Shown here one piece after another: positions 1 through 42,926 of a stretch of 64,000 bases of DNA. Within the stretch, counting starts at the first letter, position 1, and each line of letters opens with the position of its first letter. This DNA comes from a virus, in IMG/VR virus record IMGVR_UViG_3300028558_000016, positions 278,014 through 342,013 of that record. The stretch is one strand, 5' to 3'. The notes under the pieces are model-generated. The model had not been told where the DNA came from. It did not search any database and saw only the letters and a program-made list of their open reading frames with translations. Both the position numbers and the translations under genes were made by a program.

Positions 1-1119
1 CTTGCAACGCTTTCTCATGGACCCGGTTCAGGAGTTAAGTGTCTTTATTTTGCAACAACCTCAAGAATAATCAGAGTAGACCTTGCAAATATTACCGCAG
101 CTTCTACAACTTTCGTATCAGACTCGATGGTTGAGGTTCCACCAGGATCTTCGACAACATATCCTTTGACTGCAGTAATGTCTCATGTTTTATATTCTTC
201 GATGATCGACAGACTTGTAATTCTTACGACCTCAGCAGCAGGACAAAGAGGTTATGTTACACAATACAACACGACCTCAGCACAATTCGATCACATATTT
301 TTAATAGATGACAAGAACCAGGATCAATCAACTGCTGCGGTAGGATCAATTCCTTATCCATCTCTTTCAAACACGCAGATGGTAGGAGGGATGCTAAATG
401 GAAGAATGTTTATTGTAAGAAACTCTGCTGCGGCAACTTTAAACCAGATGTACAATCTTCCAATAGGAGCACATTGGGCTTATACTTCTACATCAAATCA
501 GGTCTTGATAACTCCAAGCATTCCAACAACGAATGCCTTGAAATTCTATAGACTTTATGTAAACGAGATAAAAAGATTAGGAACAGATCCTTATGTAATT
601 CAACCGGAACCTTACAAAATGTATGCAAGAACTTCTGGTATTTCTACAAATTTAGGAACATGGACTCTCATAAACGATGATGGAGATCTTTCAGGATTAA
701 CACCTACTTCCGAAATACAAATCAAATTGGAATTCAACATTCTTGGAAGATATTGCATTCCTTCGAGAATAATGTCTTTGGCAGTCGTCTTTGAAGACAC
801 CACGACGGATTCACACTATGAACCTTCTATCGCGAACTCGAATGTTTCTACAAACGTATTCGCCTTCAGACAATCAACGGCTTTCGGATCAAACATCCCT
901 AACTTAAGGATTCAATTGTTCAACGCTGTAACAGGAGTTCCTATAATAGATGACAACGTAACGTCTTCAGCTTTTGGAACTTTCCAGTATTCTTCTAACA
1001 ACGGATTATCGTGGAATGCATGGAGCAATACCCAGGATGTTGTAGGAAATTACATAAGATATACAGCAACTTCTCTGCCAGGATCTACGAGAATTAGAGC
1101 TCTATTGACGCAAGCATAA
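1..1119 (+). CDS. Structural protein, probably tail-fibre/baseplate-associated; 5' end lies outside the window
   Basis: ORF 127..1119 has no in-frame stop back to nt 1, so the true start is upstream. Ser/Thr/Asn-rich and sits immediately before the fibre gene array. Confidence 0.45.
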   Translation, partial: LATLSHGPGSGVKCLYFATTSRIIRVDLANITAASTTFVSDSMVEVPPGSSTTYPLTAVMSHVLYSSMIDRLVILTTSAAGQRGYVTQYNTTSAQFDHIFLIDDKNQDQSTAAVGSIPYPSLSNTQMVGGMLNGRMFIVRNSAAATLNQMYNLPIGAHWAYTSTSNQVLITPSIPTTNALKFYRLYVNEIKRLGTDPYVIQPEPYKMYARTSGISTNLGTWTLINDDGDLSGLTPTSEIQIKLEFNILGRYCIPSRIMSLAVVFEDTTTDSHYEPSIANSNVSTNVFAFRQSTAFGSNIPNLRIQLFNAVTGVPIIDDNVTSSAFGTFQYSSNNGLSWNAWSNTQDVVGNYIRYTATSLPGSTRIRALLTQA

Positions 1120-1137
1120 AAATAAAATATTAAAAAT

Positions 1138-1287
1138 ATGCCAGTAGATGATATAGTTTTCCAAAGCAATCCACCATTCATTTTAGAAGTTCCCGCACAG
1201 ACACCAGGAACAATAAGAGCATTATCGCTTGATGGAGTATTCGATTTTACAAATGCTACTGAAATAATAACGATTCAAATCAGCTAA
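1138..1287 (+). CDS. Small hypothetical protein (49 aa)
   Basis: ATG 1138 to TAA 1285-1287, overlapping the next start as TAATG; no motif recognised. Confidence 0.2.
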   Translation: MPVDDIVFQSNPPFILEVPAQTPGTIRALSLDGVFDFTNATEIITIQIS

Positions 1288-2678
1288 TGATTAGATTAGA
1301 CACCATAAACAAATCACTAAGGATCTTCTCAGATGCCACAGCAACGACAACAGAACCAGTCTTTGTTACGGCATTCGATGACATCAATTCCACGACTCCG
1401 GTGTTAACGCCTGGAAGCAGTGATGGTGCAACTGTTGGAAATACTCCACAAACTGCAGTAGCTTCTCCGGTAGCTTCCATCTACAGAAATGTAAAATATG
1501 TAAACGTATTCAACAGTGACACAGTTTCACACGTCATCACCGTTGAACTATTAAACAATGCTACCACCAGAACCTTAATAAAAGTAACACTTAAAACGAG
1601 TGAGCAATTAATATACAATGATGGAGATGGCTGGGGAGTTATCACAGCTTTAGGAGAAAAGAAAGTAACCGGTGTTTCAGGATTCAGTGGATTCTCAGGA
1701 GTTTCTGGAATTGGAACCTCAGGATTTTCTGGATATTCTGGAGTAAGCGGCTTCTCAGGTGTTTCAGGTTTTTCTGGAATTTCTGGATATTCCGGTGTTT
1801 CTGGATTCTCTGGAACCTCAGGATTTTCTGGATATTCTGGAGTAAGCGGTTATTCTGGTGTCAGCGGATTCTCTGGTTATTCTGGAGTTTCTGGATTTAC
1901 TGGAGTCTCCGGACAAACAGGTGTTTCGGGTTTCTCTGGAATTTCTGGTCAATCTGGCGTTAGCGGATTCACAGGAGTTTCTGGATTTTCCGGCTACACA
2001 GGCGTTTCAGGTTTTACGGGTGTTAGCGGATTTTCAGGCATTTCTGGTGATTCAGGTGTTAGTGGTTTTACTGGATATTCTGGAATTTCTGGATACAGCG
2101 GAACTTCCGGTTTCTCTGGATATTCTGGAATAAGTGGAACTTCAGGCATCTCAGGTTTTACAGGAGTAAGCGGTTACACAGGTGTTTCAGGTTTCACGGG
2201 AGTCAGCGGATTCTCTGGATATTCTGGAGTGTCGGGCTATTCCGGAACTTCAGGATTCTCAGGTTATTCCGGTACTTCCGGCTTCACAGGAACCTCAGGT
2301 TTTTCTGGAATTTCTGGAGATCCTTCTCTTGGATTAATCACAATGAGAGCATCAAGAGCTTCAGCAAATACCACAAACATTTATCTGAGAGATATGGATG
2401 GCAATCCAATGAACCAAGCTCCTTTGGTGATGCCATACAATGGAACGATAATAAATATTTCTGCATCATCTAACACTGCTGGTCCTGGCGCATGGTCTGC
2501 AGAAGTAAGAGATAATGGAACTTTAATAGCAGGAGCAGTGATAAATATGACAGCAGTTCAAACATCAAACTTTGGAACATATTCGGTGAACGTTAATGCT
2601 GGTGCACTTCTAATGATATTCATGACAGGAACTTCCATAGATAGACCTGCAATAACAGTATTAATAAAGAGAAGATAA
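1287..2678 (+). CDS. Collagen-like (Gly-X-Ser)n tail-fibre protein with C-terminal globular domain
   Basis: About 72 uninterrupted G-X-S triplets ([11 protein letters not shown]...) from aa 128 to 344, flanked by non-repetitive N- and C-terminal domains. Confidence 0.8.
   Translation: MIRLDTINKSLRIFSDATATTTEPVFVTAFDDINSTTPVLTPGSSDGATVGNTPQTAVASPVASIYRNVKYVNVFNSDTVSHVITVELLNNATTRTLIKVTLKTSEQLIYNDGDGWGVITALGEKKVTGVSGFSGFSGVSGIGTSGFSGYSGVSGFSGVSGFSGISGYSGVSGFSGTSGFSGYSGVSGYSGVSGFSGYSGVSGFTGVSGQTGVSGFSGISGQSGVSGFTGVSGFSGYTGVSGFTGVSGFSGISGDSGVSGFTGYSGISGYSGTSGFSGYSGISGTSGISGFTGVSGYTGVSGFTGVSGFSGYSGVSGYSGTSGFSGYSGTSGFTGTSGFSGISGDPSLGLITMRASRASANTTNIYLRDMDGNPMNQAPLVMPYNGTIINISASSNTAGPGAWSAEVRDNGTLIAGAVINMTAVQTSNFGTYSVNVNAGALLMIFMTGTSIDRPAITVLIKRR
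1668..2320 (+). repeat. Coding 9-nt-periodic tandem repeat array (G-X-S triplets)
   Basis: Reiterated tctggaNNNtcaggtNNN units inside ORF 1287..2678. Confidence 0.8.
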
Positions 2679-2686
2679 ACATATAA

Positions 2687-4924
2687 ATGGCTCCATATTT
2701 TAAAATAACTACAACAGGAACAAGCCCATCAACGGTCATTTTATATGATCTTGGTGAGAGAACTTTTACACATCCTACTGTAGATTTAGATCTTCTTTTA
2801 GAATTTTCTTTAGAAGAAATCCAGAATTCTCTGGATCTTATTACTGCAATAGATGCTGGAAGATTAACGGCAAATTTAGACGGAACATCCGTAACTACTG
2901 CCGATCAATTCTATGCAAACCTCACGAGCGTTTCAGGATATTCTGGAATAAGTGGAACTTCAGGATTCTCTGGATACTCAGGGGTTTCTGGATATTCTGG
3001 AACTTCTGGAATAAGTGGAACATCAGGAATTTCTGGATATTCCGGAGTTTCTGGTTACACGGGCGTTTCAGGTTTTAGCGGCGTATCAGGTTTTTCTGGC
3101 GTAAGCGGATGGTCAGGAACATCGGGAATTTCTGGGTTTAGTGGAATTTCTGGATGGTCGGGAACAAGCGGAATTTCAGGAACCTCTGGTATTTCAGGAA
3201 CTTCAGGAGTATCCGGATTTTCAGGAACCTCTGGATATTCTGGAACTTCCGGCTTCTCAGGTTACTCAGGAACCTCAGGTTTTTCTGGATATTCTGGAAT
3301 AAGTGGAACATCAGGAATCTCCGGATTTTCTGGAGTTTCAGGTTTCACTGGAGTATCTGGTCTATCGGGTTTCTCTGGAAAAGCAGACAGATATTTAACT
3401 TCCTCAACAACTTCTTTAACGATACCTGTTGGATCTCCAGCAGTGCAAACATTAACCGTTGAAGCAGGATTAGCATATTCAGTTGGACAAGGCATTGTAG
3501 TTGCAAATGATTCAACACATTTATTCACAGGAGAAGTTCAATCTTACAATAATGTTTCTGGAGTTTTAGTTGTTATAGTTCAAACAGAATTAGGAACAGG
3601 AACATTTACTTCATGGACAGTTAACCTCGACGGAGTTCAAGGCGTTCAAGGAAATTCCGGTATTTCTGGATTTTCTGGAATAGCCGTATCAGGTTTCTCT
3701 GGATATTCTGGTGTTAGCGGTTTTAGTGGAGTTTCTGGATTTACAGGAGTTTCTGGTTATTCTGGCTTCACAGGAGTTTCAGGATTCAGCGGATATTCTG
3801 GTGTGAGCGGTTACAGTGGAACATCAGGATTTTCTGGTGTTTCAGGTTTTTCAGGTTACAGCGGAGTCTCTGGATTTTCTGGAGTTTCAGGTTATTCTGG
3901 AACATCAGGCGTTAGCGGATTTTCAGGAATTAGCGGATATAGTGGAACTTCAGGTTTCACAGGAACTTCAGGCGTATCAGGTTATTCAGGCGTATCAGGT
4001 TTCACGGGAGTCTCCGGATTTAGTGGATATTCTGGTGTTAGCGGATTCACAGGTGTGAGCGGTTATTCCGGATTTTCTGGTGTGAGCGGTTACAGTGGAA
4101 CATCGGGTTACTCAGGAACTTCCGGTTATTCTGGAACTTCTGGTACATCCGGTTTTTCGGGAGTTAGTGGATATTCTGGAGTTTCAGGATTTACCGGAGC
4201 TTCAGGTGTCTCTGGATTTAGCGGTGTTTCTGGTTACAGTGGAACATCAGGATTTAGTGGATATTCTGGAGTGAGCGGATATAGTGGAACTTCCGGTTTC
4301 TCTGGATATTCCGGTGTTTCAGGTTATTCTGGAGTTTCAGGATTTACCGGAGCTTCAGGTGTTTCAGGATTCACTGGAGCAAGCGGTGTTTCAGGTTTTT
4401 CAGGCGTGAGTGGATTCTCTGGATATTCTGGAGTTTCTGGATTCTCAGGTACATCTGGAAAGAGCGGATTTTCTGGAGTTTCTGGAAATCCTCCGACATC
4501 TTCTTATGCAGAAATGTACATGACTGGTAATGGAACTGCGACAGCAGTTGTTACTGTTTCTGTTCCATTAAAAGTTGCAGGAACTACGACAGCAGGAGAT
4601 AAGACTTCTGATTGGACCCATGCTTCTAATAAGCTAACATATACCGGAACAACTACACAGGAGTTCTTCTTGAATGTTTCTTTCTCAGCAAATTCTGCTT
4701 CGGCTTCAAAGAGCTTTAGCTTCTTTGTTTACAAGAATGGTTCAGCTGTTTCAAAGTCTCAGATCAATAACTTCTTAAGAAGTTCTGGTGATGATTTTGC
4801 TGGAGGCGTTTCATGTTTGATCTCTTTAGCAACAAATGATTTTGTTGAACTGTGGACACAGAACAATACTTCGGCATCGGATGTTACGGTATCTTATATG
4901 AATTTTAACCTTACAAGAATATAA
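2687..4924 (+). CDS. Collagen-like (Gly-X-Ser)n tail-fibre protein with two repeat blocks
   Basis: Two G-X-S arrays separated by a non-repetitive segment; C-terminal globular domain rich in T/S/N/V. Confidence 0.8.
2927..3381 (+). repeat. Coding G-X-S triplet repeat array, block 1
   Basis: Tandem triplet-codon repeats within ORF 2687..4924. Confidence 0.75.
3631..4487 (+). repeat. Coding G-X-S triplet repeat array, block 2
   Basis: Tandem triplet-codon repeats within ORF 2687..4924. Confidence 0.75.
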
Positions 4925-4925
4925 A

Positions 4926-6950
4926 ATGAGGATAGCAGTTTTAAATAGCGACGGATTAAAGACCACACAGGACGATCAGCTTAAGTATTATTTTACTGTG
5001 GCAGATGGAACAGTTTTTCCAGGATCTCCTGCGATGACTGATGTTACTTCGCCAGATACTTTATATCTTTTCTTCAGATTTAATAGACTCGATTATTTTA
5101 TTTTTAAAGCTTCTGCTGTGTTATATGTGATTCCGAATTGGAATAGTTTGACATCGATTCAACAGGGTTATTATACGTCGAATTACATATTTCCAGGTGG
5201 CCATACTATATTAGATTATTATACGCAAACAGAAGTATATGAACTTAATCAGGATTTATTTTTAAGACCAGACGTAGTTTCTTTTGATCCTACGTTGTTG
5301 ACTGCTCCACTTGTCATACAGCTTCCAGATACTGGATTGACTGGAAAAATGATTACTACTCAGAACTTATCTGATGGTATCGGAGCATCGGGAGTTTCTG
5401 GATTTACGGGAGTTTCTGGTAAAAGTGGAGTATCTGGTTATTCTGGATTTACGGGAGTTTCTGGTTTTTCTGGATACAGTGGAGTATCAGGTTTTTCTGG
5501 ATATTCTGGAATAAGTGGTTACTCTGGAACATCCGGTTATTCTGGATTTACGGGAGTATCTGGATATTCTGGAGCTTCAGGAACATCCGGTTTGCAAGGT
5601 CCTAATGGACTTTCTGGTGTTAGCGGTGTTAGCGGTTATTCAGGAGTTTCGGGCTTCTCTGGGGTCTCAGGATTCAGTGGGTCTGGTGTTTCTGGGTTTA
5701 GCGGTTATTCAGGTGTTAGCGGTTTTAGTGGGTATTCTGGAGTTTCCGGTTTTTCAGGAACTTCAGGTGTTAGTGGATTTTCGGGGATCGGGACATCTGG
5801 ATTTACGGGGGTTTCTGGATTTAGTGGTTACTCAGGGGTTTCTGGTTTTTCTGGAATTAATGGAACTAATGGTACAAATGGAACATCTGGTTTTTCTGGT
5901 GTTAGCGGATATTCAGGAACTTCTGGAATAGGAACTTCAGGTTTTTCTGGAATAGGAACATCTGGTTTCTCTGGATATTCTGGAGTTAGTGGATATTCCG
6001 GAGTTTCAGGATACACTGGAACTTCTGGAGCAACTGGTCCAACAGGAACTTCAGGATTTAGTGGATATTCAGGTGTTAGTGGTTACTCAGGTGTTAGTGG
6101 ATTTACAGGAGCTTCCGGTGTTTCCGGTTTTTCAGGAGCATCTGGGAAATCTGGTTTCTCTGGTACTAATGGAACTAACGGTGCTGTTGGAACTTCTGGA
6201 ACTTCCGGATTTAGTGGTTACACAGGTGTATCTGGATTTTCAGGAATTAATGGAACTAACGGAACTTCAGGTTTCTCTGGAACAAGTGGAGTTTCAGGAT
6301 TTAGTGGTTTCTCTGGAAAATCTGGATTCTCAGGAACTAACGGAACAAATGGTGCTGCAGGTACTTCTGGAACTTCAGGTGTTAGCGGATTTTCTGGAGT
6401 CATTGCTCCTGTCTTGACGACCAAAGGAGATATATTAACTTTTTCAACAGTGAATGCAAGATTACCTGTTGGAACTAATGGACAGATATTGTTTTCGGAT
6501 TCTACACAAACTAACGGAATTAAATGGTCTAATGGAGCAAATGCACAATCATCTCCTACAGATCCAGCGACAACAGCTTCAACAACTGGTGTTATGATGG
6601 GATTAGCAGGAACTATCACACCGGTTACAACAGGAACTATAATGGTAATTATTTCTGGAGATTATGATATTACTGGAACAGGAGATTCAGGCCAAATTCA
6701 AATGAGAACAGGAACAGGAACAGCTCCTACAAATGGAGCTGCTTTAACAGGAACTACAAGAGGTGGTCTCGTTAAATTTTTAAATGGATCAAGTGCACCG
6801 GCTTCTTCAAAAAGAGAAGCATGGAGTTTAAATTGTATAATAACAGGATTGACAGTTGGAACAGCAGTATGGATCGATGTAAGTCAGGCTTCTCCATCAG
6901 GTGGTACTTTTAGAGCAAGGGACATAAGCATCTCAGCAATTGAAATATAA
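4926..6950 (+). CDS. Collagen-like tail-fibre protein with G-X-S/G-T-N repeats and C-terminal globular domain
   Basis: Long SGxSG array with interspersed NGTNGT stretches. Its N-terminal approx. 70 aa resembles ORF 6959..7618. Confidence 0.8.
   Translation: MRIAVLNSDGLKTTQDDQLKYYFTVADGTVFPGSPAMTDVTSPDTLYLFFRFNRLDYFIFKASAVLYVIPNWNSLTSIQQGYYTSNYIFPGGHTILDYYTQTEVYELNQDLFLRPDVVSFDPTLLTAPLVIQLPDTGLTGKMITTQNLSDGIGASGVSGFTGVSGKSGVSGYSGFTGVSGFSGYSGVSGFSGYSGISGYSGTSGYSGFTGVSGYSGASGTSGLQGPNGLSGVSGVSGYSGVSGFSGVSGFSGSGVSGFSGYSGVSGFSGYSGVSGFSGTSGVSGFSGIGTSGFTGVSGFSGYSGVSGFSGINGTNGTNGTSGFSGVSGYSGTSGIGTSGFSGIGTSGFSGYSGVSGYSGVSGYTGTSGATGPTGTSGFSGYSGVSGYSGVSGFTGASGVSGFSGASGKSGFSGTNGTNGAVGTSGTSGFSGYTGVSGFSGINGTNGTSGFSGTSGVSGFSGFSGKSGFSGTNGTNGAAGTSGTSGVSGFSGVIAPVLTTKGDILTFSTVNARLPVGTNGQILFSDSTQTNGIKWSNGANAQSSPTDPATTASTTGVMMGLAGTITPVTTGTIMVIISGDYDITGTGDSGQIQMRTGTGTAPTNGAALTGTTRGGLVKFLNGSSAPASSKREAWSLNCIITGLTVGTAVWIDVSQASPSGGTFRARDISISAIEI
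5381..6403 (+). repeat. Coding G-X-S triplet repeat array
   Basis: Tandem triplet-codon repeats within ORF 4926..6950. Confidence 0.75.
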
Positions 6951-6958
6951 ATACTAAA

Positions 6959-7618
6959 ATGAAGATAGCAAAACTTAAAACAACAGATGTCCAAGAAACA
7001 AGCCAAGGAATCTTGGACAATTATTATGCAGTTCAAGACACACACGTGTTTGATATAACAGAAGATGATGTTACTTCTGTGACCACTCTTTCTGTATTCA
7101 ATCAAGGATATGTGTTCGATTATCAAGTGTTCAGAGACTCGTTGATGACAAACATTGTTCCACAGTGGGCCAACATCTTATATGAGGACAGAAAGAAATG
7201 TGTTCAACATTACAAATATCCTGCAAACATAAGCCAGGAAGAATTCGATAATTACTTCACACAAGCTGACCACGAAAAGAACTGGAGCGTCATAACAACT
7301 TTATCAAGAGCGACAAGGCTTCAGAGATTGTTTGCCGCTTTCCAAAAAATTTCTTATGAATTGACGCAAGCACAGGTTGCTACAATATACATGACGACAA
7401 AGATGATGTTGATCGATTACTACTACGCGAATCTTCCACATATTTTATTTTGGATTCAGAACGGAGTTTATCCTCCAATGGGCATTAATTTTACGACAAA
7501 TGGTTTTCAACAAATGAGCGGCTTCTCTCCTACTTTGGAGATGCAACTCTTGGACATCCTCGTTAATGGTAATTATATAAACACCAGCAATGAGATAACT
7601 GGAATAAAAGTATTTTAA
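6959..7618 (+). CDS. Fibre-associated protein sharing the N-terminal domain of the collagen-like fibres, without repeats
   Basis: N-terminus MKIAKLKTTD..YY.V.D..VF parallels MRIAVLNSDGLKTTQ..YYFTVADGTVF of ORF 4926. Confidence 0.5.
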   Translation: MKIAKLKTTDVQETSQGILDNYYAVQDTHVFDITEDDVTSVTTLSVFNQGYVFDYQVFRDSLMTNIVPQWANILYEDRKKCVQHYKYPANISQEEFDNYFTQADHEKNWSVITTLSRATRLQRLFAAFQKISYELTQAQVATIYMTTKMMLIDYYYANLPHILFWIQNGVYPPMGINFTTNGFQQMSGFSPTLEMQLLDILVNGNYINTSNEITGIKVF

Positions 7619-7635
7619 AAGAACAAACCAAGACA

Positions 7636-8214
7636 ATGCAACTGTTTTTATCATCCGGCAAATCAACACCTCCACAAAAATATCTTGATCACAGATCAGA
7701 GATAAAGAATGGAGATTTACTTCTTTACAGAGGTTCAAGCTTAGTTTCAAGGGGGATACAATACTTTGATAAAGCATATTACAACCACATAGGCGTTGTT
7801 TGGATTCCAGAAAATTCCGGAAGAGTTCTTACGTTAGACATGTGGTCAGGTGGATTGACATGTCTTCCTCTTTCAAGAAGAATGTCAGGCTACAACGATT
7901 TTTGCATCTTGAGACCTAAGGTAGATGCTTCCATATCTTTCGAGGCTGTTAAATCTGTTCTTGGAATGTGGGATGGAAGAAGTGTTAATTATGATTTCGG
8001 TTTATTGCTGAGATTCATAATCATCAAGAAGACTGGAATAGACATAACAGGTCTAAGCGAGAAGGGAACTTACATCTGCAGCCAGTTCGCACAATACTAC
8101 TGTCAGCTGCTTGGAATAAACATCTTCGACGGCATCGACATGATCACTCCACAAGACTTTTTAAGGAAGATGGACTTGAACTTTTTTGACGTGCTTTTAC
8201 AAGAGAACAAATAA
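7636..8214 (+). CDS. Possible permuted papain-fold (YiiX-like) peptidase
   Basis: His-containing motif (YNHIGVV) precedes a Cys motif (GTYICSQFAQYY), as in permuted NlpC/P60-like hydrolases. Weak call. Confidence 0.3.
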   Translation: MQLFLSSGKSTPPQKYLDHRSEIKNGDLLLYRGSSLVSRGIQYFDKAYYNHIGVVWIPENSGRVLTLDMWSGGLTCLPLSRRMSGYNDFCILRPKVDASISFEAVKSVLGMWDGRSVNYDFGLLLRFIIIKKTGIDITGLSEKGTYICSQFAQYYCQLLGINIFDGIDMITPQDFLRKMDLNFFDVLLQENK

Positions 8215-8252
8215 TTATCAGGCGCGTATAACAAGAAAACGCGCCTGATACT

Positions 8253-9497
8253 ATGAGCATTCCAAAGCCTTCTAAAGAATCTGCTCTTCAACAGAGAGCA
8301 ATAAATCTGGAAAAGATCCACTACAAATTTCCAGAAGAAGATCCTGACATCATTCACTCGTTCATACAACACAATGGAACAACTCCGTCCCTTCATAAGG
8401 TGTGCGGTCCTTTCATCTATAACGAAGTCATCGACATCATTAAAACTTATTACGAAGGAAAAGAATTCGTCCAAGAATGGGAGATGGATGACGATTACCA
8501 CAAGTCATCAAGCTATAAAGTTCTTGATAATGGAAAATATACATTCATAAGAATAAAGAAGAGCTATCTTGCAATTGAGACTGATTATCTTATCACTGCA
8601 AAGAAGAACAAGTATAAGGATAAAAGATACGGTTGGTTGATCACGTCTGAGATAGAAATATTCTTTGATTTTCCAACAGGAAAACCGCAGGACCTCATTG
8701 ACAAATTAAAGAAGCTTGAGCTTGAGGTGAACAACGAACACAACAAGATCGGACTTATTTGCCAGGATACCGATGGTGGTTTATACACCAAGGACTTCCC
8801 ATTACTGAAGAACGATTTCGATTTCGATTTGAACCTTCATTACGGCTCTGGATTCTCTACGTTTCACGACATCACAATAAAGAGAATAGATGATTCCGAA
8901 AAAGGAATCATACTGTTGCATGGGACTCCTGGCACCGGAAAATCCTATTACATAAGGAGATTGATCAGAGACCTCATGCGAAGGAATAAGAAGATTCTAT
9001 ATCTTCCAAACAACATCGTCGATCTATTGGGAACCCCGCACTTCAATAACTTCTTATTGGACTTTGTTGATGATGCAATTGAATCAGGAAACAGAAAAGG
9101 TTTATTGATGGTCATTGAGGATGCTGAGAAGGTCCTATTAAAGAGAGAAAGCAATCCATACGGTGGTTCAGGCGTTTCAAACATATTGAACTGCACAGAT
9201 GGAATATTGAACGACTTCTTAAACATTCAGATCCTTGCCACGTTCAACACCAACATCGAGAACATTGATGAGGCTATTCTTAGAAAGAAGAGAGCCATCT
9301 CAGTTAAAGAGTTTGGAAAGCTTTCAATAGAGGATTCTCAGAAGCTTATCGACAGCTTGAACATCGAATACACCGCAACAGAAGAGATGTGTCTTGCCGA
9401 TATTTATTCCATTAAACAGGAAGAGGAAGACAAAATCTTATTAGGAGATAAAAAGAAAGCGACGAAGGTTTTAGGATTCGGTTCAGCAAAAAGATGA
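8253..9497 (+). CDS. Classic-clade AAA ATPase
   Basis: Walker A GTPGTGKS, Walker B LLMVIEDAEK, sensor region NCTDG, and second region ATFNTN..DEAILRKKR. Confidence 0.7.
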   Translation: MSIPKPSKESALQQRAINLEKIHYKFPEEDPDIIHSFIQHNGTTPSLHKVCGPFIYNEVIDIIKTYYEGKEFVQEWEMDDDYHKSSSYKVLDNGKYTFIRIKKSYLAIETDYLITAKKNKYKDKRYGWLITSEIEIFFDFPTGKPQDLIDKLKKLELEVNNEHNKIGLICQDTDGGLYTKDFPLLKNDFDFDLNLHYGSGFSTFHDITIKRIDDSEKGIILLHGTPGTGKSYYIRRLIRDLMRRNKKILYLPNNIVDLLGTPHFNNFLLDFVDDAIESGNRKGLLMVIEDAEKVLLKRESNPYGGSGVSNILNCTDGILNDFLNIQILATFNTNIENIDEAILRKKRAISVKEFGKLSIEDSQKLIDSLNIEYTATEEMCLADIYSIKQEEEDKILLGDKKKATKVLGFGSAKR

Positions 9498-10336: not shown

Positions 10337-10924
10337 ATGGAGTACAAAGAATTCAAGGATAAACACAAAGGGCAAAAGATCATGGTGGTTGGTTGTGGGA
10401 CTTCAACTGGAACGTTGACCAACCCACAAGACTACATCACAGTTGGCGTCAACGATCTATCGCGCCTCTTTCATCCCAACTACCTCGTTGTGTTGAATGA
10501 CAAATCAAGCTTTGAACACGACAGATGGCAATGGATCGAAGGAACACATTGCCCACACATATTCACACACATAAGAAATTTAGCAGTCAAGGAAGAATCA
10601 AGGATACCATTGCAGCTTGGAAGATATGGCGGAACAGACCTTAACAAGGATGCCGTCGATTACACTTCAAATTCCACCTACGTCGCCTGCATCATTGCGG
10701 CTTACATGGGAGCTTCCAAGATAGGATTGCTTGGTGTTGATTTCACTCTCAATCATTTCTTCGCACAATCAGGAGAGCATTCATTGGCTAAGAAGGCAAA
10801 CGTGATCAACATGGAATACGCAGCATTGAAGGTTGCGATGGACATGAAGGGAATAGAGTTTGTGAATCTTTCTCAAACGTCAAAGATTACTGCTTTGCCT
10901 AAGCAAACAATAGAAGAATTTTAA
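10337..10924 (+). CDS. Hypothetical Rossmann-like protein
   Basis: N-terminal IMVVGCGTS glycine-rich motif; family not identified. Confidence 0.4.
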   Translation: MEYKEFKDKHKGQKIMVVGCGTSTGTLTNPQDYITVGVNDLSRLFHPNYLVVLNDKSSFEHDRWQWIEGTHCPHIFTHIRNLAVKEESRIPLQLGRYGGTDLNKDAVDYTSNSTYVACIIAAYMGASKIGLLGVDFTLNHFFAQSGEHSLAKKANVINMEYAALKVAMDMKGIEFVNLSQTSKITALPKQTIEEF

Positions 10925-13070: not shown

Positions 13071-14042
13071 TTATTCTGTTTCAGTTTCTTTTGTTATTTC
13101 TTTTACTGCTCCTTCTCCAAGGAACTCAATCACCTTCTCGAGGGTGAGATCACAATATTCGTCAATCCAATCTCCGATGTAATAAAGCTTTCTGCTTCCA
13201 ATAACAACCCCAAACAGGATTGGATCTCTTTTTCTTGCAGTCTCTATAATCTTTTCTTCAACGGTTTGTTCGCTTCCTTTTCCATCTGGATCGTAATGAA
13301 GCACGACGTAGTTGTCGAATATGTGGCGGTCATCTGCTTTAATCTTCTTCTCTGCAACGTCATCTGGAATGATCCTCACGAAGTTCTTTATCCAATCAAG
13401 GCGAAGAGCCTTAGGGGATTTCTTTATGAACTTAATTATGTTGTCTTCTGACAAGTACTTGGTCATTCCAATTGCATACAACTGAGCTTCGGCCCTGTAC
13501 ATCTCGATGTCAAATGCCATTGACTGCATCAACGATACTTGTCCAAGTTGTTTAAGCTTTTTAATTGCGGCATCGTAACCTTCTATTTTTTCTCTTACGA
13601 GAACGATTTCTTCCACGCTGTTCTTAACAGAGTTAAAGAATTCTTCTACAGACATTTCAGGTTGAGGTTCTTCTTCTGGCAGCTTGTGTATTTCCATGTT
13701 TGGCACTTGCGCCATGTCCTGCTCCATGCGTATTCGTTCTGCTTCCTTCTTCCTCTTGGACTTACCAAATATCCTTTCAATTATTCCGGGCTTGTTTCCT
13801 GAGTCTCCCATTCCTCCAGCCTGGAATGATCCAGACACAGTTGTTATTGGCCAACCAATAGGAGTGATAAACGAATCGCTTCCTACAACCAATTTGCCTT
13901 CAGGATTTCTTGTGATGTTGTTGTATATCATCATGTGAGCTCCTTCTTCCATTCGGTGTCTCCACTTAGGAAGTTGATAATCCACCTCGAATGCTTCAAA
14001 CACTCTTAATGATTTCTTGTCGTGTGCTAATGTGCTGCTCAT
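13071..14042 (-). CDS. Hypothetical protein (323 aa)
   Basis: ORF; no motif recognised. Confidence 0.45.
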   Translation of the reverse strand: MSSTLAHDKKSLRVFEAFEVDYQLPKWRHRMEEGAHMMIYNNITRNPEGKLVVGSDSFITPIGWPITTVSGSFQAGGMGDSGNKPGIIERIFGKSKRKKEAERIRMEQDMAQVPNMEIHKLPEEEPQPEMSVEEFFNSVKNSVEEIVLVREKIEGYDAAIKKLKQLGQVSLMQSMAFDIEMYRAEAQLYAIGMTKYLSEDNIIKFIKKSPKALRLDWIKNFVRIIPDDVAEKKIKADDRHIFDNYVVLHYDPDGKGSEQTVEEKIIETARKRDPILFGVVIGSRKLYYIGDWIDEYCDLTLEKVIEFLGEGAVKEITKETETE

Positions 14043-25339: not shown

Positions 25340-26788
25340 ATGGCAACAAAATCATCAACAATGTCCGGCGAGGACATTAAAAAAACAGCGATCGATAAAG
25401 GATTAAAGGTCGCAATACTCGTATGTGTGTCAGATGACAACAATAACAAGTATTTCAATATGTACGAACAAGGAGATGGAACTTACATGGTAATCCGCGG
25501 AAGAGTGGACGTTACCGAAATAATCGAAGGTCCATACCCAATGTCAAAATGGGATGTTCATTACAAGGACAAAACAAAAGCAAACAAAAAACCAAAACCT
25601 TACACTGATCAAACTCATTTGTTCTCTGAACAAAAGAAAAGCGATGGTGCAGGAAAGAAAAAAGAAAAATCATCGAACTTCCATTCAAAGAGAACTGCAA
25701 TGGTAATTGATTTCGTGAAACAACTTCAAAAATTCGCAAATCAATCGGTAGAAGAAAACTACACGGTATCAGCCGCAAACGTTACTAAGAAGCAAGTTGA
25801 TTTCGCTCAACAAACTTTAAATCAAATTAGCGACATGGTTAAGAAAGGCGCAGAGGTTGGTCCAATCAATGACAAACTAATGGAGCTTTATCAAATCATT
25901 CCTCGTCGTATGAAACATGTGAATAACCACCTCATCATTACAGATGAAATGGAAAAAACACTTGGTAAAGTTGAGAAGACCGACAAAGAAAAAATGAAAG
26001 AGGCGAAAGCTAAAACATATTCAATGAAGATTAAATCTGATGCCGAGTTACAAAAAGCGCATGACATGATTGCCGGTGAGCAAGATACTCTTGACGTTAT
26101 GGCAGGTCAGGTTGCTGTTGAAGAACAGGAAAAGAAAGATCACGTTGAAACCCCAGGTGCTAAAAAAGAATACGATTTATTGCACGCAATGAAACTTGAT
26201 ATGGAAGATTGCGATAAGTATGAAATTGCAATGCTTAAGAATATGCTTGATCAAAACGCTAAAGCCGGCCACGAAAAGAATTCAAACCTTTTCAAACGTG
26301 CATATCGCGTTAAGAACGATAGCACTGAAGTTGCTTACAACAATTTCATGGGTAAAGTTAAAAACAAGAAGAAGGAATTATTGTGGCATGGAAGTCGCAA
26401 TGAAAACTGGTGGAGCATTTTCCAACAAGGTTTAGTTCTTCGTCCTACCAATGCAGTAATCACCGGTAAGATGTTTGGTTACGGATTATATTTCGCTGAC
26501 AAGGCGCAAAAATCCATAAACTACTCTTCTTATTCTGGAGCATCACGCTCTTACACAGGGGGTTCATCAAGGAATGCAATTCTTGCGGTATATGAAGTTC
26601 ACCAAGGAGATCAATTGGTAATTAAACGTCATGAGCACTCACACTCACAATTGACTGATAAACAAATGGAAAAACACGGTAAAGATTCTGTGTTCGCTCA
26701 AGGCGGTTATGACCTTGTGAATAACGAATACATTGTGTACAAGCAACAACAATGTACTATAAAATATCTTGTTGAAATTGGGAACTAA
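25340..26788 (+). CDS. Poly(ADP-ribose) polymerase (PARP) catalytic-domain protein with N-terminal WGR-like and helical regions
   Basis: LLWHGSRNENWWSIFQQGL (H-G-S), GKMFGYGLYFADKAQKS (Tyr), and DLVNNEYIVYKQQQCTIKYLVE (catalytic Glu) align one-to-one with the PARP1 LLWHGSR/GIYFAD/LLYNEYIVYD motifs. Confidence 0.75.
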   Translation: MATKSSTMSGEDIKKTAIDKGLKVAILVCVSDDNNNKYFNMYEQGDGTYMVIRGRVDVTEIIEGPYPMSKWDVHYKDKTKANKKPKPYTDQTHLFSEQKKSDGAGKKKEKSSNFHSKRTAMVIDFVKQLQKFANQSVEENYTVSAANVTKKQVDFAQQTLNQISDMVKKGAEVGPINDKLMELYQIIPRRMKHVNNHLIITDEMEKTLGKVEKTDKEKMKEAKAKTYSMKIKSDAELQKAHDMIAGEQDTLDVMAGQVAVEEQEKKDHVETPGAKKEYDLLHAMKLDMEDCDKYEIAMLKNMLDQNAKAGHEKNSNLFKRAYRVKNDSTEVAYNNFMGKVKNKKKELLWHGSRNENWWSIFQQGLVLRPTNAVITGKMFGYGLYFADKAQKSINYSSYSGASRSYTGGSSRNAILAVYEVHQGDQLVIKRHEHSHSQLTDKQMEKHGKDSVFAQGGYDLVNNEYIVYKQQQCTIKYLVEIGN

Positions 26789-29314: not shown

Positions 29315-30472
29315 ATGCAGATACCTAAAGACATAGCAGAAATTCAACAAAAATTCATCGCCGCTGGAAAAGAAATTTTCCTCGTTGGTGGATGTGTTCG
29401 TGATTTCAAGCTTGGTCTTGAGCCCAAAGATTTGGACATGGCAACCAATGCCTTTCCAGAAGAAATTGAAACCATCCTCAAAGGAGTTGAGATGGACCTT
29501 ACAGGCAAAAGTTTTGGAGTCATGCGGGTTCGCAGTGAGTTCGATCCAAACGGATACGAAATTGCCACATACAGAGAAGATGAGAGTGCTGGAAGAAAAC
29601 CGACCGTAAAGATCGGATCAACCATGGAAAACGATGCGTGGAGAAGAGACTTCACGATCAACGCTCTTTACTATGATATTTCCAACAAGACTATAATTGA
29701 TCACACTGGCGGGCTCAATGATTTAGAAAACAAAATCATTCGTGCTTGTGGCGATCCTGCGAAAAGAATTAACGATGATGCTTTGAGAATGCTTAGGGCA
29801 GTTCGTTTCAAAAATACTATTGGTGGAACTATTGATGTTGACTTGCATAATGCAATGTTGGCCAATCCTGTTTTACAAGGTCCAGACAAAGATGGAAATA
29901 TAGTACCAATATCACAGGAGAGAATAGCTGAGGAATTCCTTAAAGGTCTTTCCAAAAGCTACAACATGGATCTCGTTGACCAATATGTGAAAGATTTAAT
30001 GACATACCAATTTCTTGGACAAGTGTTCAGAGGACTTCACGTAAATGATAATTTTACATGCAACTCAAGAAAGCCTGAGATAATGATTGCGGATCTTTTA
30101 CGTTTTAATACGAATCACAAGGATTTATTTAATAAGCTTGTTTATGATTGCAAATTCAGTATTGATATTGCCGAAGGAGTTATTTTTCTTTTGAGCCTTG
30201 AAGATATTGATGAGGACAAAGTGTACAAGCTAAGAAAAAGAATGGACAGCAAAACCAAATTAAATAAGGATGATCTTATTATTTATTCAGGTTTAATGGT
30301 AGAGAATGGAATGATTGGAAGAGTTGCTTATGTACATGCATTCACTAAATATTCCATAACAACAAGCGGAGATGAATTAAAAGAAAAGGAAGGATTTGTT
30401 GATGGAGCAGAACTTGGAGCAGAGATAGCAAAAAGAGAGAAAAACAATTTTTTAAAAATATTTACACAATGA
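29315..30472 (+). CDS. cca: tRNA nucleotidyltransferase (CCA-adding enzyme / poly(A) polymerase head-domain family)
   Basis: FLVGGCVRDFKLGLEPKDLDMAT (GGxVRD...DxD) and RRDFTINALYYD motifs of class II CCA enzymes. Confidence 0.75.
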   Translation: MQIPKDIAEIQQKFIAAGKEIFLVGGCVRDFKLGLEPKDLDMATNAFPEEIETILKGVEMDLTGKSFGVMRVRSEFDPNGYEIATYREDESAGRKPTVKIGSTMENDAWRRDFTINALYYDISNKTIIDHTGGLNDLENKIIRACGDPAKRINDDALRMLRAVRFKNTIGGTIDVDLHNAMLANPVLQGPDKDGNIVPISQERIAEEFLKGLSKSYNMDLVDQYVKDLMTYQFLGQVFRGLHVNDNFTCNSRKPEIMIADLLRFNTNHKDLFNKLVYDCKFSIDIAEGVIFLLSLEDIDEDKVYKLRKRMDSKTKLNKDDLIIYSGLMVENGMIGRVAYVHAFTKYSITTSGDELKEKEGFVDGAELGAEIAKREKNNFLKIFTQ

Positions 30473-31161
30473 ACGAATCAAAAGACTTAAAAAGTTTAAT
30501 AGCATCCTTGCAGGAAGGAAGCGAGTTTTGTGATTTCATGATAACAAAGCTTCTTCACATGGATGGGTCCACCGATGCCGATCTTAAAAAAGATTACAGA
30601 AAACTCTTTAAAGAAGGAGGAGCTGATGCTTTTAAAGATGACATGAAAAATGGAAAGAAATTAAAGTATACAGAAGAAGAGCTTGAAATGATCGAGGAAA
30701 AAATAAATGAAATTTTTCCAGAAGGTCATGAGCCACTCACAACAACAATGATACCATTCGGTTTTTATCTTGGACAATTATTAAGAAAGAAGATACCAGG
30801 TGCTGAATGGAAAGTGACAGATGAGGTTAACAAGAAAAACAGTATATGGGATGTCTTTATTGAATTTAAAAATTCTGACGGATATACCATGCAGGCTAAA
30901 CCGTTCATGCGCGTTGATAAATTTTGGAGAAGGAGAGAAGATAAGATGTCAGCATTCGTTAAGATGATTGAAATGACATCTGAAATTAAAATGGATCCTG
31001 AGTATTGGAATAAACGCGCAGATGATGAAGGTTGGATTGAAACCGCTAACGAAATGTCGTTCAGGGTTTTTCAAGGAAGCAAGAAAGATAAAATAGATGG
31101 AGATTTCTCTAAAGCAAAGGGAATGTTTCATAACGGAAAATTTGGAGATGGAAAATATTAA
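30469..31161 (+). CDS. Hypothetical protein
   Basis: ORF with ATGA junction; no motif recognised. Confidence 0.45.
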   Translation: MNESKDLKSLIASLQEGSEFCDFMITKLLHMDGSTDADLKKDYRKLFKEGGADAFKDDMKNGKKLKYTEEELEMIEEKINEIFPEGHEPLTTTMIPFGFYLGQLLRKKIPGAEWKVTDEVNKKNSIWDVFIEFKNSDGYTMQAKPFMRVDKFWRRREDKMSAFVKMIEMTSEIKMDPEYWNKRADDEGWIETANEMSFRVFQGSKKDKIDGDFSKAKGMFHNGKFGDGKY

Positions 31162-32488
31162 TAAAATAAAAGACATACACTCGAGTGATGCCTATGGAAT
31201 TCTGGTAGAGACTGGATGTGGTCTTGCGGTATCTAATGAATTGCTTGAAGTCAGCGGTGCATCTAATACGGTTTATTTTGCTGAATGTCCATACAGCAAG
31301 GAATATCAAACATTCAAGTATGGCGAAACCAATGCGAGAGCGGTTTCAATGGAAAACATAAAGCACATAATGAATTATCATAAAGCTTTAGATAAACCAG
31401 AAAACGTTAACTTCATTTATGCTTCATCCTTTCAAGTAGGAGAACACAACGATAAATCAACTCATGGATGGATAGGTCTTTCATTAAAAGAAGATGACAG
31501 ACGTTATTTCCACATCTCAATACATGAGTCATTAACACGAAAACAATACATCGATAAAATATCTAAGATAGGAATTGACATTTTACATTTTTACATAAAC
31601 AAATCAACTGGTACAAATTTCATACCGAGCAATTGTTGCATTGACATAGTACTTAATGGAAAAGGTGAACAGGTCAATTTAACTGATATGTTTGTTTCTC
31701 TTAGATATGAAGACGATGAAAACTTCTTATGCTTCAAAGAAGGAAAATTAGTTAGAATGGAAGATCTTTTCAGAGATCAAAAGAACATAGTATTATTCAA
31801 GGGAAGCTTTAATCCAATCCATGCCGCTCACATACACACTGCACAATTAGCAAAGGATGAATATGGAATTGAACCTGTGTTTGTTATTAGTTCTTCAGTG
31901 TATCAAAAAGGATGGATAGAACCTGAGGATCTTAAGAACCGAGTGGAAACATTAAACGAACTTGGCTATCCTGTTATAATAACTAAAGATGGTTACTTTA
32001 ACAAGAACACGTCCTATATTAGACGTAAATTCAAACAACCTTTGATATACGTAGTTGGTTCGGATACATTAAACAGAATATTGGAAAGCTCATATAACAT
32101 TTTAAATCCAGAACTTAGCGAGAGATATAATCATTACGTCAATCAATTGATTTCCATGAAGCCTGAGAATGAACTGATAACAGACGAAGAATTGGATGAA
32201 ATAGAAAAAATGGCATTACAACATTATTTAAGAAGATTCAAAGAGGATTTCAAAGATGTAAAATTCTTCGTTGTAAATAGACCAGGGAGCGAATTGCACG
32301 AAGATGCAAAACGAATAGAAGAATTTTATTCAATGGTTGAAGAACATCCTGAGTATTTCCATATAAGCTCAACTAAAATTCGTGCCATGCTTATAGCTGG
32401 AGATTATGAGACAATTAAAAAATTGATACCAGAAAAAATATTTGAAAAGTATATTAACCAAAAAACAAACAACCATGTCAACAACTAA
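31148..32488 (+). CDS. Fusion of a CinA/PncC-like (NMN deamidase-like) domain and NMN/NaMN adenylyltransferase
   Basis: N-terminal domain VETGCGLAVSNELLEVSGASNTVYFAECPYSKEYQ parallels the PncC segment [35 protein letters not shown]. C-terminal domain GSFNPIHAAH is the (H/T)xGH nucleotidyltransferase motif. Confidence 0.55.
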   Translation: MENINKIKDIHSSDAYGILVETGCGLAVSNELLEVSGASNTVYFAECPYSKEYQTFKYGETNARAVSMENIKHIMNYHKALDKPENVNFIYASSFQVGEHNDKSTHGWIGLSLKEDDRRYFHISIHESLTRKQYIDKISKIGIDILHFYINKSTGTNFIPSNCCIDIVLNGKGEQVNLTDMFVSLRYEDDENFLCFKEGKLVRMEDLFRDQKNIVLFKGSFNPIHAAHIHTAQLAKDEYGIEPVFVISSSVYQKGWIEPEDLKNRVETLNELGYPVIITKDGYFNKNTSYIRRKFKQPLIYVVGSDTLNRILESSYNILNPELSERYNHYVNQLISMKPENELITDEELDEIEKMALQHYLRRFKEDFKDVKFFVVNRPGSELHEDAKRIEEFYSMVEEHPEYFHISSTKIRAMLIAGDYETIKKLIPEKIFEKYINQKTNNHVNN

Positions 32489-33144: not shown

Positions 33145-33990
33145 ATGTATAACATAAAATACCCGGTCGCATTCCACCCAGTGGATATGGCCATAACAAG
33201 AATACACGAAGGAAGAATACAAGTTCTCCTTGCGCAAAAAGTAAAAGACACAGAAGGTGGAGCTAACATTGTTAGATTCCCTGGAGGTTTCCTTGATGTG
33301 TGTGACTCGTGTGCTGAAGAAGCAGCATTGAGAGAAGCAATGGAAGAAACAGGAATGAGATTTGGAAACTCTGCTATGGCAGATTATTTCATCGGATACT
33401 TTGCTAAGAAGAAACCATTTACCGATAAGTTGAACAAACTTATAGAATCAAACGGTGATGCAAAGGAAATAACTGAAACCATCAACCAATTGCATGCAAT
33501 CAAAATATCCGATGATGCTTTAGCATGGTTGAGAACAAGAACAACTTACATTGGTTCAACTAAGATTGATGATGCAAGATATGCTGACACAGATCACAAA
33601 GTAATCACAAGCTTTTATGAGCTACATCCAAATCCAAAATTCGATAAGGATGGTGAAGGTCCATTTGATGACATCGCAAGAACAAAATGGTTTTTCCTTT
33701 CAGACATTAAAGAAGAAATCATGCACAAGTCGCATGTTCCATTGTTCAACATGTTATTTGAAAAATACAAAGCAGAGAGACTTGCAGACAACGTGTTTAA
33801 CGCTGCTGAAGAGGTATTCAAATCAACAGAGGAAATGTTCAACACCTTCAAAAAAGAAACTGATGAGATTTTTGATGGAATAAAAAAGAAAATGCCTGAA
33901 TACGAAAAGAAAGTGGATGAAGCAATGCAAGGCATGGGAAAGAAAATGGATAAGTTCTTTAGCGGTTTAGAAGATATTTTAAAATCTTAA
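33145..33990 (+). CDS. Nudix hydrolase with C-terminal helical extension
   Basis: GGFLDVCDSCAEEAALREAMEETGM contains a Nudix-box-like REAMEETGM (REUxEExGU). Confidence 0.6.
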   Translation: MYNIKYPVAFHPVDMAITRIHEGRIQVLLAQKVKDTEGGANIVRFPGGFLDVCDSCAEEAALREAMEETGMRFGNSAMADYFIGYFAKKKPFTDKLNKLIESNGDAKEITETINQLHAIKISDDALAWLRTRTTYIGSTKIDDARYADTDHKVITSFYELHPNPKFDKDGEGPFDDIARTKWFFLSDIKEEIMHKSHVPLFNMLFEKYKAERLADNVFNAAEEVFKSTEEMFNTFKKETDEIFDGIKKKMPEYEKKVDEAMQGMGKKMDKFFSGLEDILKS

Positions 33991-36567: not shown

Positions 36568-36885
36568 ATGAAGCAAGACGAAGAAGAAGACCAAATCATT
36601 TGTATTTGTTCAAAAGAAAATTCGGCTCATACCATTGGTATAAGAGTTCCATGCCGTGGTCCAGGCTGTAATGCTCAGCTTTGGCTGAGTGACAGCACTA
36701 TTAATAGAATTAAAAAGGAAAAAACGGATGTTGATTTAACGAAAACACCTCCTACCCCATTGTGTATGGATTGTGGATTGAAGGCTTTGAAAAATTCAAA
36801 GGATTTTAAAATAGCTCCACCAACCACCGAACAGATGGAAGAAATATTAAAGGCAATGACAGAAATCGATGCTCAACAAAGATGA
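36568..36885 (+). CDS. Cys-rich zinc-binding protein
   Basis: CICS...CRGPGC...CMDC cysteine clusters. Confidence 0.45.
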   Translation: MKQDEEEDQIICICSKENSAHTIGIRVPCRGPGCNAQLWLSDSTINRIKKEKTDVDLTKTPPTPLCMDCGLKALKNSKDFKIAPPTTEQMEEILKAMTEIDAQQR

Positions 36886-37501
36886 CATAATCAAAGCAGC
36901 AGGAGTCCATCCATTAAAGGTTAAAAACATTTACGTGTTTGGATCTCGGGTATATGGAACCGCAACAGCGGACTCTGACTATGACATCATTGTTGTTGCT
37001 AATTCCATGGATGAAAAGAGAGAAGTTGTTTATAAGGATCTCAATATCCATATTCATACTCCAGATAAATTCATTAGAGATCTCAAACAGCTTGACATGC
37101 ATAACCTCGAGTGCATCTTTGCTCCAGAAGGAGCAAAGATATTGGAAAAAGTAAATTATGTCGATGCTAATTTTAAGATCAATCCAGACCAAATGAAATA
37201 TGCTGCAATGAGCCAATCATTCAACAGGTTTCACACGGCCAAGGTGAAAATTCTCGATGGAGATTTTCACAGAGGAATTAAAAGCTTATTTCATTCATTA
37301 AGGATATTATTGTTTTCGATGCAAATACTTCGTAATGGAAGGATCGATGATTTTTCAGAAGCTAACAAATTTTGGGCCGACATCAAGATAGACATTCAAC
37401 TTACAAAAAATATCACCAACGAGGAAGAGATGTGGAGATATTTCAAAGATAAATATCTTCCACAAAAAATTGAATTAGAAAAACGATTAAAAGAAATGTA
37501 A
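36869..37501 (+). CDS. Minimal nucleotidyltransferase (MNT/KNTase-like) with C-terminal helical domain carrying an Rx6H HEPN-like motif
   Basis: YVFGSRVYGTATADSDYDIIVV is the GS...D.D nucleotidyltransferase motif. RGIKSLFH fits R(x4-6)H. Confidence 0.5.
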   Translation: MLNKDDIIKAAGVHPLKVKNIYVFGSRVYGTATADSDYDIIVVANSMDEKREVVYKDLNIHIHTPDKFIRDLKQLDMHNLECIFAPEGAKILEKVNYVDANFKINPDQMKYAAMSQSFNRFHTAKVKILDGDFHRGIKSLFHSLRILLFSMQILRNGRIDDFSEANKFWADIKIDIQLTKNITNEEEMWRYFKDKYLPQKIELEKRLKEM

Positions 37502-42826: not shown

Positions 42827-42836
42827 CAAATAAAAT

Positions 42837-42920: not shown

Positions 42921-42926
42921 GCAATT

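Follow-up and report, generated by a model that had tools for sequence, protein, structure and literature searches.

What do the Gly- and Ser-rich genes at one end of a phage genome segment encode, and do they account for the serine tRNA genes carried on the same segment? The segment, hereafter the window, is a stretch of 64,000 nucleotides (nt) of the IMG/VR virus record IMGVR_UViG_3300028558_000016 (positions 278,014 to 342,013; GC 37%). It represents ~13% of a 482-kb contig, and our reading covered the window and ~8 kb of each flank (~80 kb). Three adjacent fibre genes (g1–g3), a fourth starting at 62469 (g4) and a fifth upstream of the window (g0) encode proteins with arrays of Gly-X-Ser (G-X-S) triplets. 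The explanation that we favour, and consider probable, is that the products are modular virion fibre proteins (tail fibres or receptor-binding proteins) of a huge phage, probably trimeric, and that the tRNA-Ser genes are not specifically tied to them.

A sequence-only reading of the window had described g1–g3 and g4, with 70 to about 330 uninterrupted triplets each. The genes themselves were recovered: g1–g3 are three tightly packed open reading frames (ORFs) on one strand, with intergenic gaps of 8 nt and 1 nt, and g4 runs off the window. The g0 gene, which that reading did not include, is added here. The array lengths require correction, as Gly-X-Y triplets number 72 in g1, 145 in g2, 110 in g3 and 38 in g4; the figure of ~327 is the sum over g1–g3, and the longest unbroken run is 89 triplets (g2, residues 336–602). 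The X position is F, V, Y, T or I, in agreement with the earlier description, and Ser occupies ~85% of Y positions, in 60/72, 130/145, 84/110 and 26/38 triplets of g1 to g4, respectively. All four proteins passed the Pfam Collagen model PF01391 (E 6e-32 to 2e-63 for g1–g3, 4e-14 for g4), with scores of 110, 210, 158 and 53 bits against a gathering cutoff of 27.2, and these matches are far above chance.

Within the arrays, X positions alternate between aromatic and beta-branched residues (lag-1 autocorrelation −0.39; aromatic runs ≤3), and the real repeat unit is therefore close to the hexapeptide G-Ar-S-G-(V/T/I)-S. The underlying DNA is degenerate, with 60–80% matches at periods of 9 to 90 nt, and the arrays are not recent expansions. 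All six Ser codons are used, as had been stated, although very unevenly: TCT 158, TCA 120, AGC 54, AGT 52, TCC 29 and TCG 11 across the five genes. Avoidance of identical adjacent Ser codons, a possible anti-slippage signature, was not detected in the g0–g3 arrays, which were no different from shuffles; the short g4 array alone was lower (0.08 versus 0.275 ± 0.08 in shuffles).

The proposed plan of anchor, array and head holds for g1–g3 (Table 1) and fails for g4, whose full-length product (979 amino acids (aa), read from L002, a record past the window end that is 100% identical to the window where they overlap) has a short array at aa 256–379 followed by ~600 aa of other domains. In g0, a 165-aa globular insert separates two arrays of 71 triplets each, and inserts of the same type occur in the unrelated metagenomic G-X-S proteins P0128, P0131, P0138 and P0219. 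With repeats masked, the g0–g4 proteins had no BLAST similarity to one another, and profile–profile comparison of the heads with hhalign gave no homology. The idea of paralogous heads was thus rejected, and the term 'paralogous', applied to these genes in the sequence-only reading, is correct for the repeat and for nothing else. Because there is no similarity outside the repeats, the proteins are mosaics in which only the repeat module is common to all.

Mosaicism extends to proteins that lack the repeat. Repeat-free versions include two ORFs of the same cluster (p255 and p219) and the 226-aa protein P0004, in which a g2-type anchor is joined straight to a g2-type head without a collagen segment. 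A g1-type anchor occurs together with G-X-S arrays in the proteins P0125 and P0126, the first of which also carries a g2-type insert. Downstream of g0, the gene order is p255 (255 aa) and then a 708-aa protein ending at window position 1119, which has a weak match to a PHROG tail-fibre family (phrog_1591, E 9e-5).

The g1 anchor links this cluster to phage tails. It is 61% identical to the N-terminus of p255, which lies upstream, and a library of 1.84 billion proteins contains at least 2,757 cluster representatives with this domain. In nearly all of the best 150 of these 2,757 representatives, the anchor occupies residues 1–125, in proteins of ~100–1,840 aa. It is also 33–38% identical to the N-termini of fibres on podovirus-like contigs. 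On one such contig (L010), a g1-type anchor heads a 1045-aa tail fibre, the gene for which lies directly after the adaptor Ad3 and Hc3 genes (phrog_637 and phrog_578) and before DNA-ejection protein genes. Among g1–g4, an anchor shared with tail-module fibres was found for g1 alone. The PHROG tail-fibre families 6320, 5073 and 30509 match the fibres strongly (down to E 7e-109), and these matches reach into the heads. A search with full-length g1 retrieved at least 745 proteins at E < 1e-10 among the matches listed, and many G-X-S homologues are fused to receptor-binding modules (Peptidase_S74, pectate lyase 3 and CBM_5_12).

Head folds were evaluated with single-chain AlphaFold2 (AF2) models. 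The g3 head model is confident (predicted local distance difference test (pLDDT) 85), and its matches in BFVD are phage proteins named 'Collagen triple helix repeat', 'C1q domain containing' and 'Peptidase S74 domain-containing'; by sequence, this head has 321 homologues, mostly proteins of 115–300 aa. The g2 head model is assigned to the same class of fold, of which cyanophage tail-fibre domains are also members. As modelled, both heads are compact jelly-rolls of the C1q/TNF/BclA fold class, g2 at lower confidence. PDB sequence searches with the three heads returned nothing meaningful, and the fibres matched no Pfam family other than Collagen (no C1q, TNF or BclA_C). The head models and the tail-fibre homology of the g1 anchor together support the structural part of the sequence-only reading, namely collagen-like virion fibres or receptor-binding proteins with BclA/C1q-type heads.

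The two roles offered in that reading, receptor binding and decoration, would place the proteins differently on the virion. As capsid or neck decoration, they would make up whiskers or a 'hairy' coat like that of BclA, and would not be receptor-binding tail fibres; a collagen segment with a TNF/C1q head is the architecture of BclA and of giant-virus surface fibrils, and several paralogues of differing length would suit a coat. The p255 head also matches phrog_10330, annotated as 'virion structural protein' in the head-and-packaging category, and no baseplate genes were identified adjoining the fibre genes. We nonetheless consider decoration unlikely: in a podovirus tail module, a tail fibre begins with an anchor of the g1 family, PHROG matches are overwhelmingly to tail-fibre families, and G-X-S homologues carry the tailspike and tail-fibre modules Peptidase_S74 and pectate lyase 3.

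For tail-fibre or receptor-binding proteins, the parts suggest a division of labour. The N-terminal anchor would dock the fibre on the virion, and the array of Gly-(aromatic or beta-branched)-Ser triplets would act as a long thin spacer, most likely a proline-free collagen-type triple helix of ~35–125 nm. At 0.286 nm per residue, predicted rod lengths are ~62 nm for g1, 43 + 82 nm for g2, ~98 nm for g3 and ~126 nm for g0. The C-terminal tip, apparently of TNF/C1q type in at least two proteins, would trimerise, nucleate the shaft from its C-terminus and bind a host surface ligand; heads of this type trimerise and nucleate collagen helices in C1q, collagen VIII/X and BclA. The repeat may serve as a shared, rapidly resizing spacer module while anchors and heads are exchanged independently, which would supply the phage with several fibres of differing reach and specificity.

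Several points weigh against this explanation. The g2 head model is weak (pLDDT 61), and the g1 head has no PDB sequence match and no assigned fold. No baseplate or capsid genes that would fix the location of the fibres were seen in the ~80 kb read of 482 kb. Formation of trimers and of a triple helix, a place in the virion, binding to a receptor and the tRNA role are matters that we infer rather than observe directly. The arrays also depart from a collagen-stabilising composition, with Pro in 0–3 X positions per gene and charged residues nearly absent, and host–guest peptide scales assign low triple-helix propensity to aromatic residues at X and Ser at Y. Finally, a PDB search with the array returned generic collagens only, matched via the Gly register, and no solved structure with a G-X-S array.

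The essential absence of Pro and charged pairs and the lack of a solved structure with such a sequence are equally points in favour of a shaft that is not a collagen triple helix, as is the aromatic/beta-branched alternation, a hexapeptide packing rule atypical of collagens. The arrays would then adopt another form with Gly at period 3, such as bundled polyglycine-II/polyproline-II (PPII) helices, or serve as flexible, possibly O-glycosylated linkers. This seems doubtful to us, as Gly recurs strictly at every third residue in runs as long as 89 triplets, the arrays precede heads of a fold class known to trimerise and nucleate collagen helices, and period 3 is incompatible with beta-sheet. A related and tentative idea, also improbable in our estimation, is that G-(aromatic)-S-G-(beta-branched)-S arrays constitute a structurally distinct class of proline-free, uncharged shaft. 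Such a shaft might be a non-canonical collagen helix with an aromatic/Ser surface ladder, possibly glycosylated, or another PPII-based trimer; the class would be found very widely among uncultivated phages, its arrays reaching ~930 triplets, with no solved representative.

Comparison with a relative is consistent with a resizable spacer between exchangeable ends. The whole fibre cluster is present, in the same order, on a 374-kb IMG/VR record (L005, IMGVR_UViG_3300035183_000733), with 51–74% identity in non-repeat domains (63% for the 708-aa protein, 66% for the g1 head, 71% for the g2 insert, 51% for the g3 anchor and 62% for p219). Triplet numbers differ between the relative and the window phage (88 versus 147 in g0, 38 versus 72 in g1, 129 versus 145 in g2 and 65 versus 110 in g3), and the g3 head has been replaced with a different one. 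Shaft length and tip therefore evolve fast and independently of each other. The relative has a GC content of 50%, compared with 37% here, a large compositional shift between related huge phages despite their protein identity and common gene order.

To determine the distribution of such arrays, we scanned IMG/VR with a degenerate DNA pattern for G[FY]SGVSG[FY]SG[VTAI]SG[FY]SG. The pattern matched at least 119 loci on contigs of 5 to 374 kb, and 109 of the 119 matched loci listed carry G-X-S ORFs (median 90 triplets, maximum 932). A few G-X-S loci were on giant-virus metagenome-assembled genome contigs. G-X-S fibres occur widely across viral contigs, whatever the contig size, and are common at ordinary phage size. 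No published description of a Gly-X-Ser or G-X-S repeat shaft was found in the limited literature searched, where matches were lipase-motif papers only.

BclA, C1q and collagen VIII/X exemplify the design of a collagen shaft with a trimerising head. The Bacillus exosporium proteins BclA and F-BclA resemble the fibres here in having a collagen shaft and a C1q/TNF-type head, but BclA is a bacterial spore protein with GPT triplets, and neither its anchor nor its head has sequence similarity to these fibres. Likeness to other C1q/TNF heads, including a Photorhabdus TNF-like lectin (9ib6), the Chlamydia Pgp3 C-terminal domain (4jdn) and the Bdellovibrio Bd2734 fibre tip (8okw), is at the level of fold only (7–20% identity). 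Giant-virus collagen-repeat proteins with C1q-like heads (Pandoravirus, Pithovirus and Cedratvirus, in BFVD) have the same architecture and head fold, whereas the contig analysed here has bacterial-type tRNAs, a bacterial-type leucyl-tRNA synthetase (LeuRS) and phage-type neighbours. Close in kind are collagen-like phage tail fibre and minor tail proteins (PHROG 6320, 5073, 30509 and 1806; Escherichia coli O157:H7 prophage proteins, PMC3368898), which also have Gly-X-Y arrays between non-collagenous domains. The present fibres differ in their almost pure G-(F/Y/V/T/I)-S triplets without proline or charge, in anchors and heads without a PHROG or Pfam family of their own, and in their 482-kb huge-phage genome. 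Collagen-like tail fibres with C1q/TNF-like tips are thus already known in phages and giant viruses, and this unannotated cluster is one more case; what is under-described is a shaft of the G-(aromatic or beta-branched)-S type and how abundant it is among metagenomic phages.

A block of 'hypothetical' huge-phage genes can accordingly be read as a multi-fibre host-recognition module with swappable anchors, shafts and tips, in which shaft lengths differ up to two-fold between relatives. Annotation of such modules could aid host-range inference and the engineering of receptor-binding proteins. As a sequence, the G-X-S shaft represents a common but uncharacterised way of building a long, thin, proline-free rod, and it might be of interest to collagen-mimetic design if it forms a stable triple helix.

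The sequence-only reading had further proposed Ser demand from the fibres as a mundane rationale for four tRNA-Ser genes, alternative or additional to an anti-defence role. These genes are present (anticodons GGA, TGA, GCT and CGA), together with four tRNA-Leu genes that it had not reported (TAG, TAA, CAA and GAG), and the eight tRNAs provide complete decoding sets for two six-codon, class II amino acids. At least five such fibre genes are present. Ser makes up 18.0% of fibre residues versus 5.9% in other window genes (3.1-fold), and the fibres account for 29% of window Ser codons but 11.7% of all window codons. Gly, however, is more enriched (20.3% versus 5.6%; 3.6-fold), with no tRNA-Gly in the window or within ~8 kb on either side. 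Moreover, 4/8 tRNAs are for Leu, an amino acid depleted in the fibres (4.8% versus 8.4–8.5%; 0.56-fold), and a LeuRS-like gene abuts the block. Across the 64 kb and 16 kb of flanks, out of 482 kb, the tRNA set is not biased towards amino acids over-used by the fibres: Ser is served, Gly is unserved, and Leu is depleted yet served. The only codon read by tRNA-Ser(CGA) is TCG, which the fibres use least of all Ser codons (5% of their Ser codons, 11/424 in arrays). A comparison of Ser and Leu codon fractions, suggested earlier as a check, did reveal enrichment, as Ser and Leu codons, for which the phage tRNAs are equipped, amount to 22.8% of codons in the fibres versus 14.3% elsewhere, and the lack of enrichment that the sequence-only reading had named as a refutation was therefore not seen; but the tRNA set covers all Ser and Leu codons whatever their use, and the test therefore cannot discriminate.

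Evidence from other genomes also argues against a link between fibres and tRNA-Ser. In the relative, whose GC content is 50%, the choice of Ser codons in arrays tracks genome GC. Many contigs of 5–70 kb encode G-X-S fibres (median 90 triplets), and any tRNA was found at 2/119 loci listed. In related huge phages, 40 kb can contain 19–27 tRNAs in amino-acid-specific blocks, including five consecutive tRNA-Leu and three tRNA-Gly, and huge phages are reported to have up to 67 tRNAs per genome, a number that scales with genome size (PMC7162821). In the 374-kb relative, searches for the tRNA island with LeuRS-like and NAMPT queries and with an exact tRNA-Ser 29-mer were all without a match. We judge it highly unlikely that the tRNA-Ser genes exist, even in part, to supply the Ser demand of G-X-S fibre genes, although this demand might make a minor contribution; as a specific rationale, it is not supported.

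The surroundings of the tRNAs suggest a different role. They sit among genes for RNA repair or tRNA maturation (RNA ligase, 2H-phosphoesterase-like protein, PNK/3'-phosphatase, CCA-adding enzyme and RlaP-like nucleotidyltransferase) and for NAD+ metabolism (Sir2, NAMPT, NMNAT-like, NUDIX, NADAR and PARP-like proteins), a setting that itself argues against Ser demand. The LeuRS-like protein is truncated (487 aa versus ~843 for TIGR00396), apparently without an editing domain. The tRNAs would thus be part of an island for Leu/Ser decoding, RNA repair and NAD+ salvage, pointing to huge-phage translation autonomy or counter-defence, and the NAD+-related and RNA-repair genes suggest NAD+ reconstitution plus tRNA repair as the form of counter-defence. 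Amino-acid-grouped blocks adjoining synthetase and RNA-repair genes are known from huge-phage tRNA and aminoacyl-tRNA-synthetase complements (Al-Shayeb et al. 2020, PMC7162821); in contrast, the tRNAs seen in the window here are all for Ser or Leu. With the fibres decoupled from tRNA-Ser, the Ser/Leu tRNAs, the LeuRS-like gene and the RNA-repair/NAD+-salvage island need an explanation of their own, in translation autonomy or counter-defence.

Table 1. Positions of the fibre genes, their domains and the genes of the tRNA island; coordinates are those of the window unless the upstream flank record (L001) is named.
Feature	Position	Strand	Remarks
g0, fifth G-X-S fibre gene, 706 aa, 147 triplets	L001 4792-6912		~5 kb upstream of the window
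708-aa fibre-module protein, C-terminal 330 aa	127-1119	+	Gene start upstream, L001 7707-9833
g1	1287-2678	+	463 aa
g1 N-terminal anchor, aa 1-128	1287-1670	+	Homology to p255 N-terminus and tail-fibre N-termini
g1 G-X-S collagen-like array, 72 triplets	1671-2324	+	~62 nm if triple-helical
g1 C-terminal head, 117 aa, no fold assigned	2325-2678	+	phrog_5073 tail-fibre match reaches into head
g2	2687-4924	+	745 aa
g2 N-terminal anchor, aa 1-83	2687-2935	+	Homologous anchor in P0004
g2 G-X-S array 1, 50 triplets	2936-3385	+	Triplet count
g2 globular insert between arrays, 82 aa (aa 234-315)	3386-3631	+	Similar insert in P0125
g2 G-X-S array 2, 95 triplets, holds the 89-triplet run	3632-4492	+	Triplet count
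g2 C-terminal head, predicted all-beta jelly-roll, TNF/C1q/BclA-like fold	4493-4924	+	Low-confidence model
g3	4926-6950	+	674 aa
g3 N-terminal anchor, aa 1-152	4926-5381	+	27% identity to p219 N-terminus
g3 interrupted G-X-S/N/T arrays, 110 triplets, four blocks	5382-6404	+	Triplet count
g3 C-terminal head, conserved linker motif, then predicted TNF/C1q-like jelly-roll	6405-6950	+	AF2 model
p219, 219-aa repeat-free paralogue of g3 anchor	6959-7618	+	27% identity
PARP-like gene	25340-26788
CCA-adding enzyme	29315-30472
NMNAT-like cytidylyltransferase	31097-32488
NUDIX	33145-33990
NAMPT	34288-36081
RlaP-like nucleotidyltransferase	36869-37501
NADAR	39345-40031
tRNA block, 4 tRNA-Ser + 4 tRNA-Leu, context only, outside the fibre system	42576-46519	+	Interleaved with LeuRS-like, RNA ligase and Sir2 genes
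LeuRS-like gene	43214-44677		Directly after six-tRNA block; TIGR00396, E 7e-120
RNA ligase	44604-45308
Sir2	45722-46432
2H-phosphoesterase-like gene	48482-49225
PNK/3'-phosphatase	49588-50535
g4, first 510 aa of 979-aa protein; collagen-like segment (38 triplets) at 63234-63605	62469-64000	+	Heads second cluster of large fibre-like genes

The source genome is that of a huge phage. The g1 gene is encoded on a single 482,059-bp metagenomic contig (ena:ERZ27245401:k141_1209612), and the nearest records in a collection of 50,697 phage records are huge phages of the LR7565xx series. Against this collection, there was no match to window positions 1–9000 (megablast), to the array at 3700–4480 (blastn) or to the g1 anchor (tblastn), and tblastn with g3 gave a single match, to the head region, in LR756502. 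The first 50 kb of LR756500 has three genes in common with the window, with no tRNA and no G-X-S gene there.

Fibre-like genes form two clusters ~55 kb apart, and the intervening genes are non-structural. In the second cluster, the genes after g4 encode proteins of 1209, 651 and at least 900 aa (L002 14785–21245), which have no PHROG match and probably also form part of fibres. A 26-aa motif (GSRLVEADSSGNL-like) is common to those of 1209 and 651 aa. Downstream of g1–g3, p219 is followed by genes for a 192-aa protein (7636–8214; phrog_1128) and an AAA+ ATPase (8253–9497). These three genes occur in identical order in the 374-kb relative, with 50–62% identity, and may encode fibre assembly factors.

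Three pieces of the window tRNA block align to LR756501 with 78% identity, in a region with a block of five tRNA-Leu genes. We considered whether the 'Leu' tRNAs of the window carry Ser identity (recoding) and rejected this, as the 5' halves are canonical tRNA-Leu and tRNA-Ser sequences. In the tRNA block of LR756501, a 735-kb phage, ARAGORN predicted a tRNA with a four-base anticodon (ttac) at 10516–10606 of record L021 (LR756501.1 174454–214848), which may be either an artefact of prediction or a tRNA resembling frameshift suppressors. Just upstream of the window tRNA block lies a phosphatidylserine-decarboxylase-like gene (40669–41592; PF02666, E 2e-17), an unusual lipid-metabolism gene for a phage. 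A 323-aa ORF on the minus strand (13071–14042) matches the PHROG transposase family phrog_10081 (E 1.5e-23), and by this similarity points to a mobile element within the huge-phage genome.

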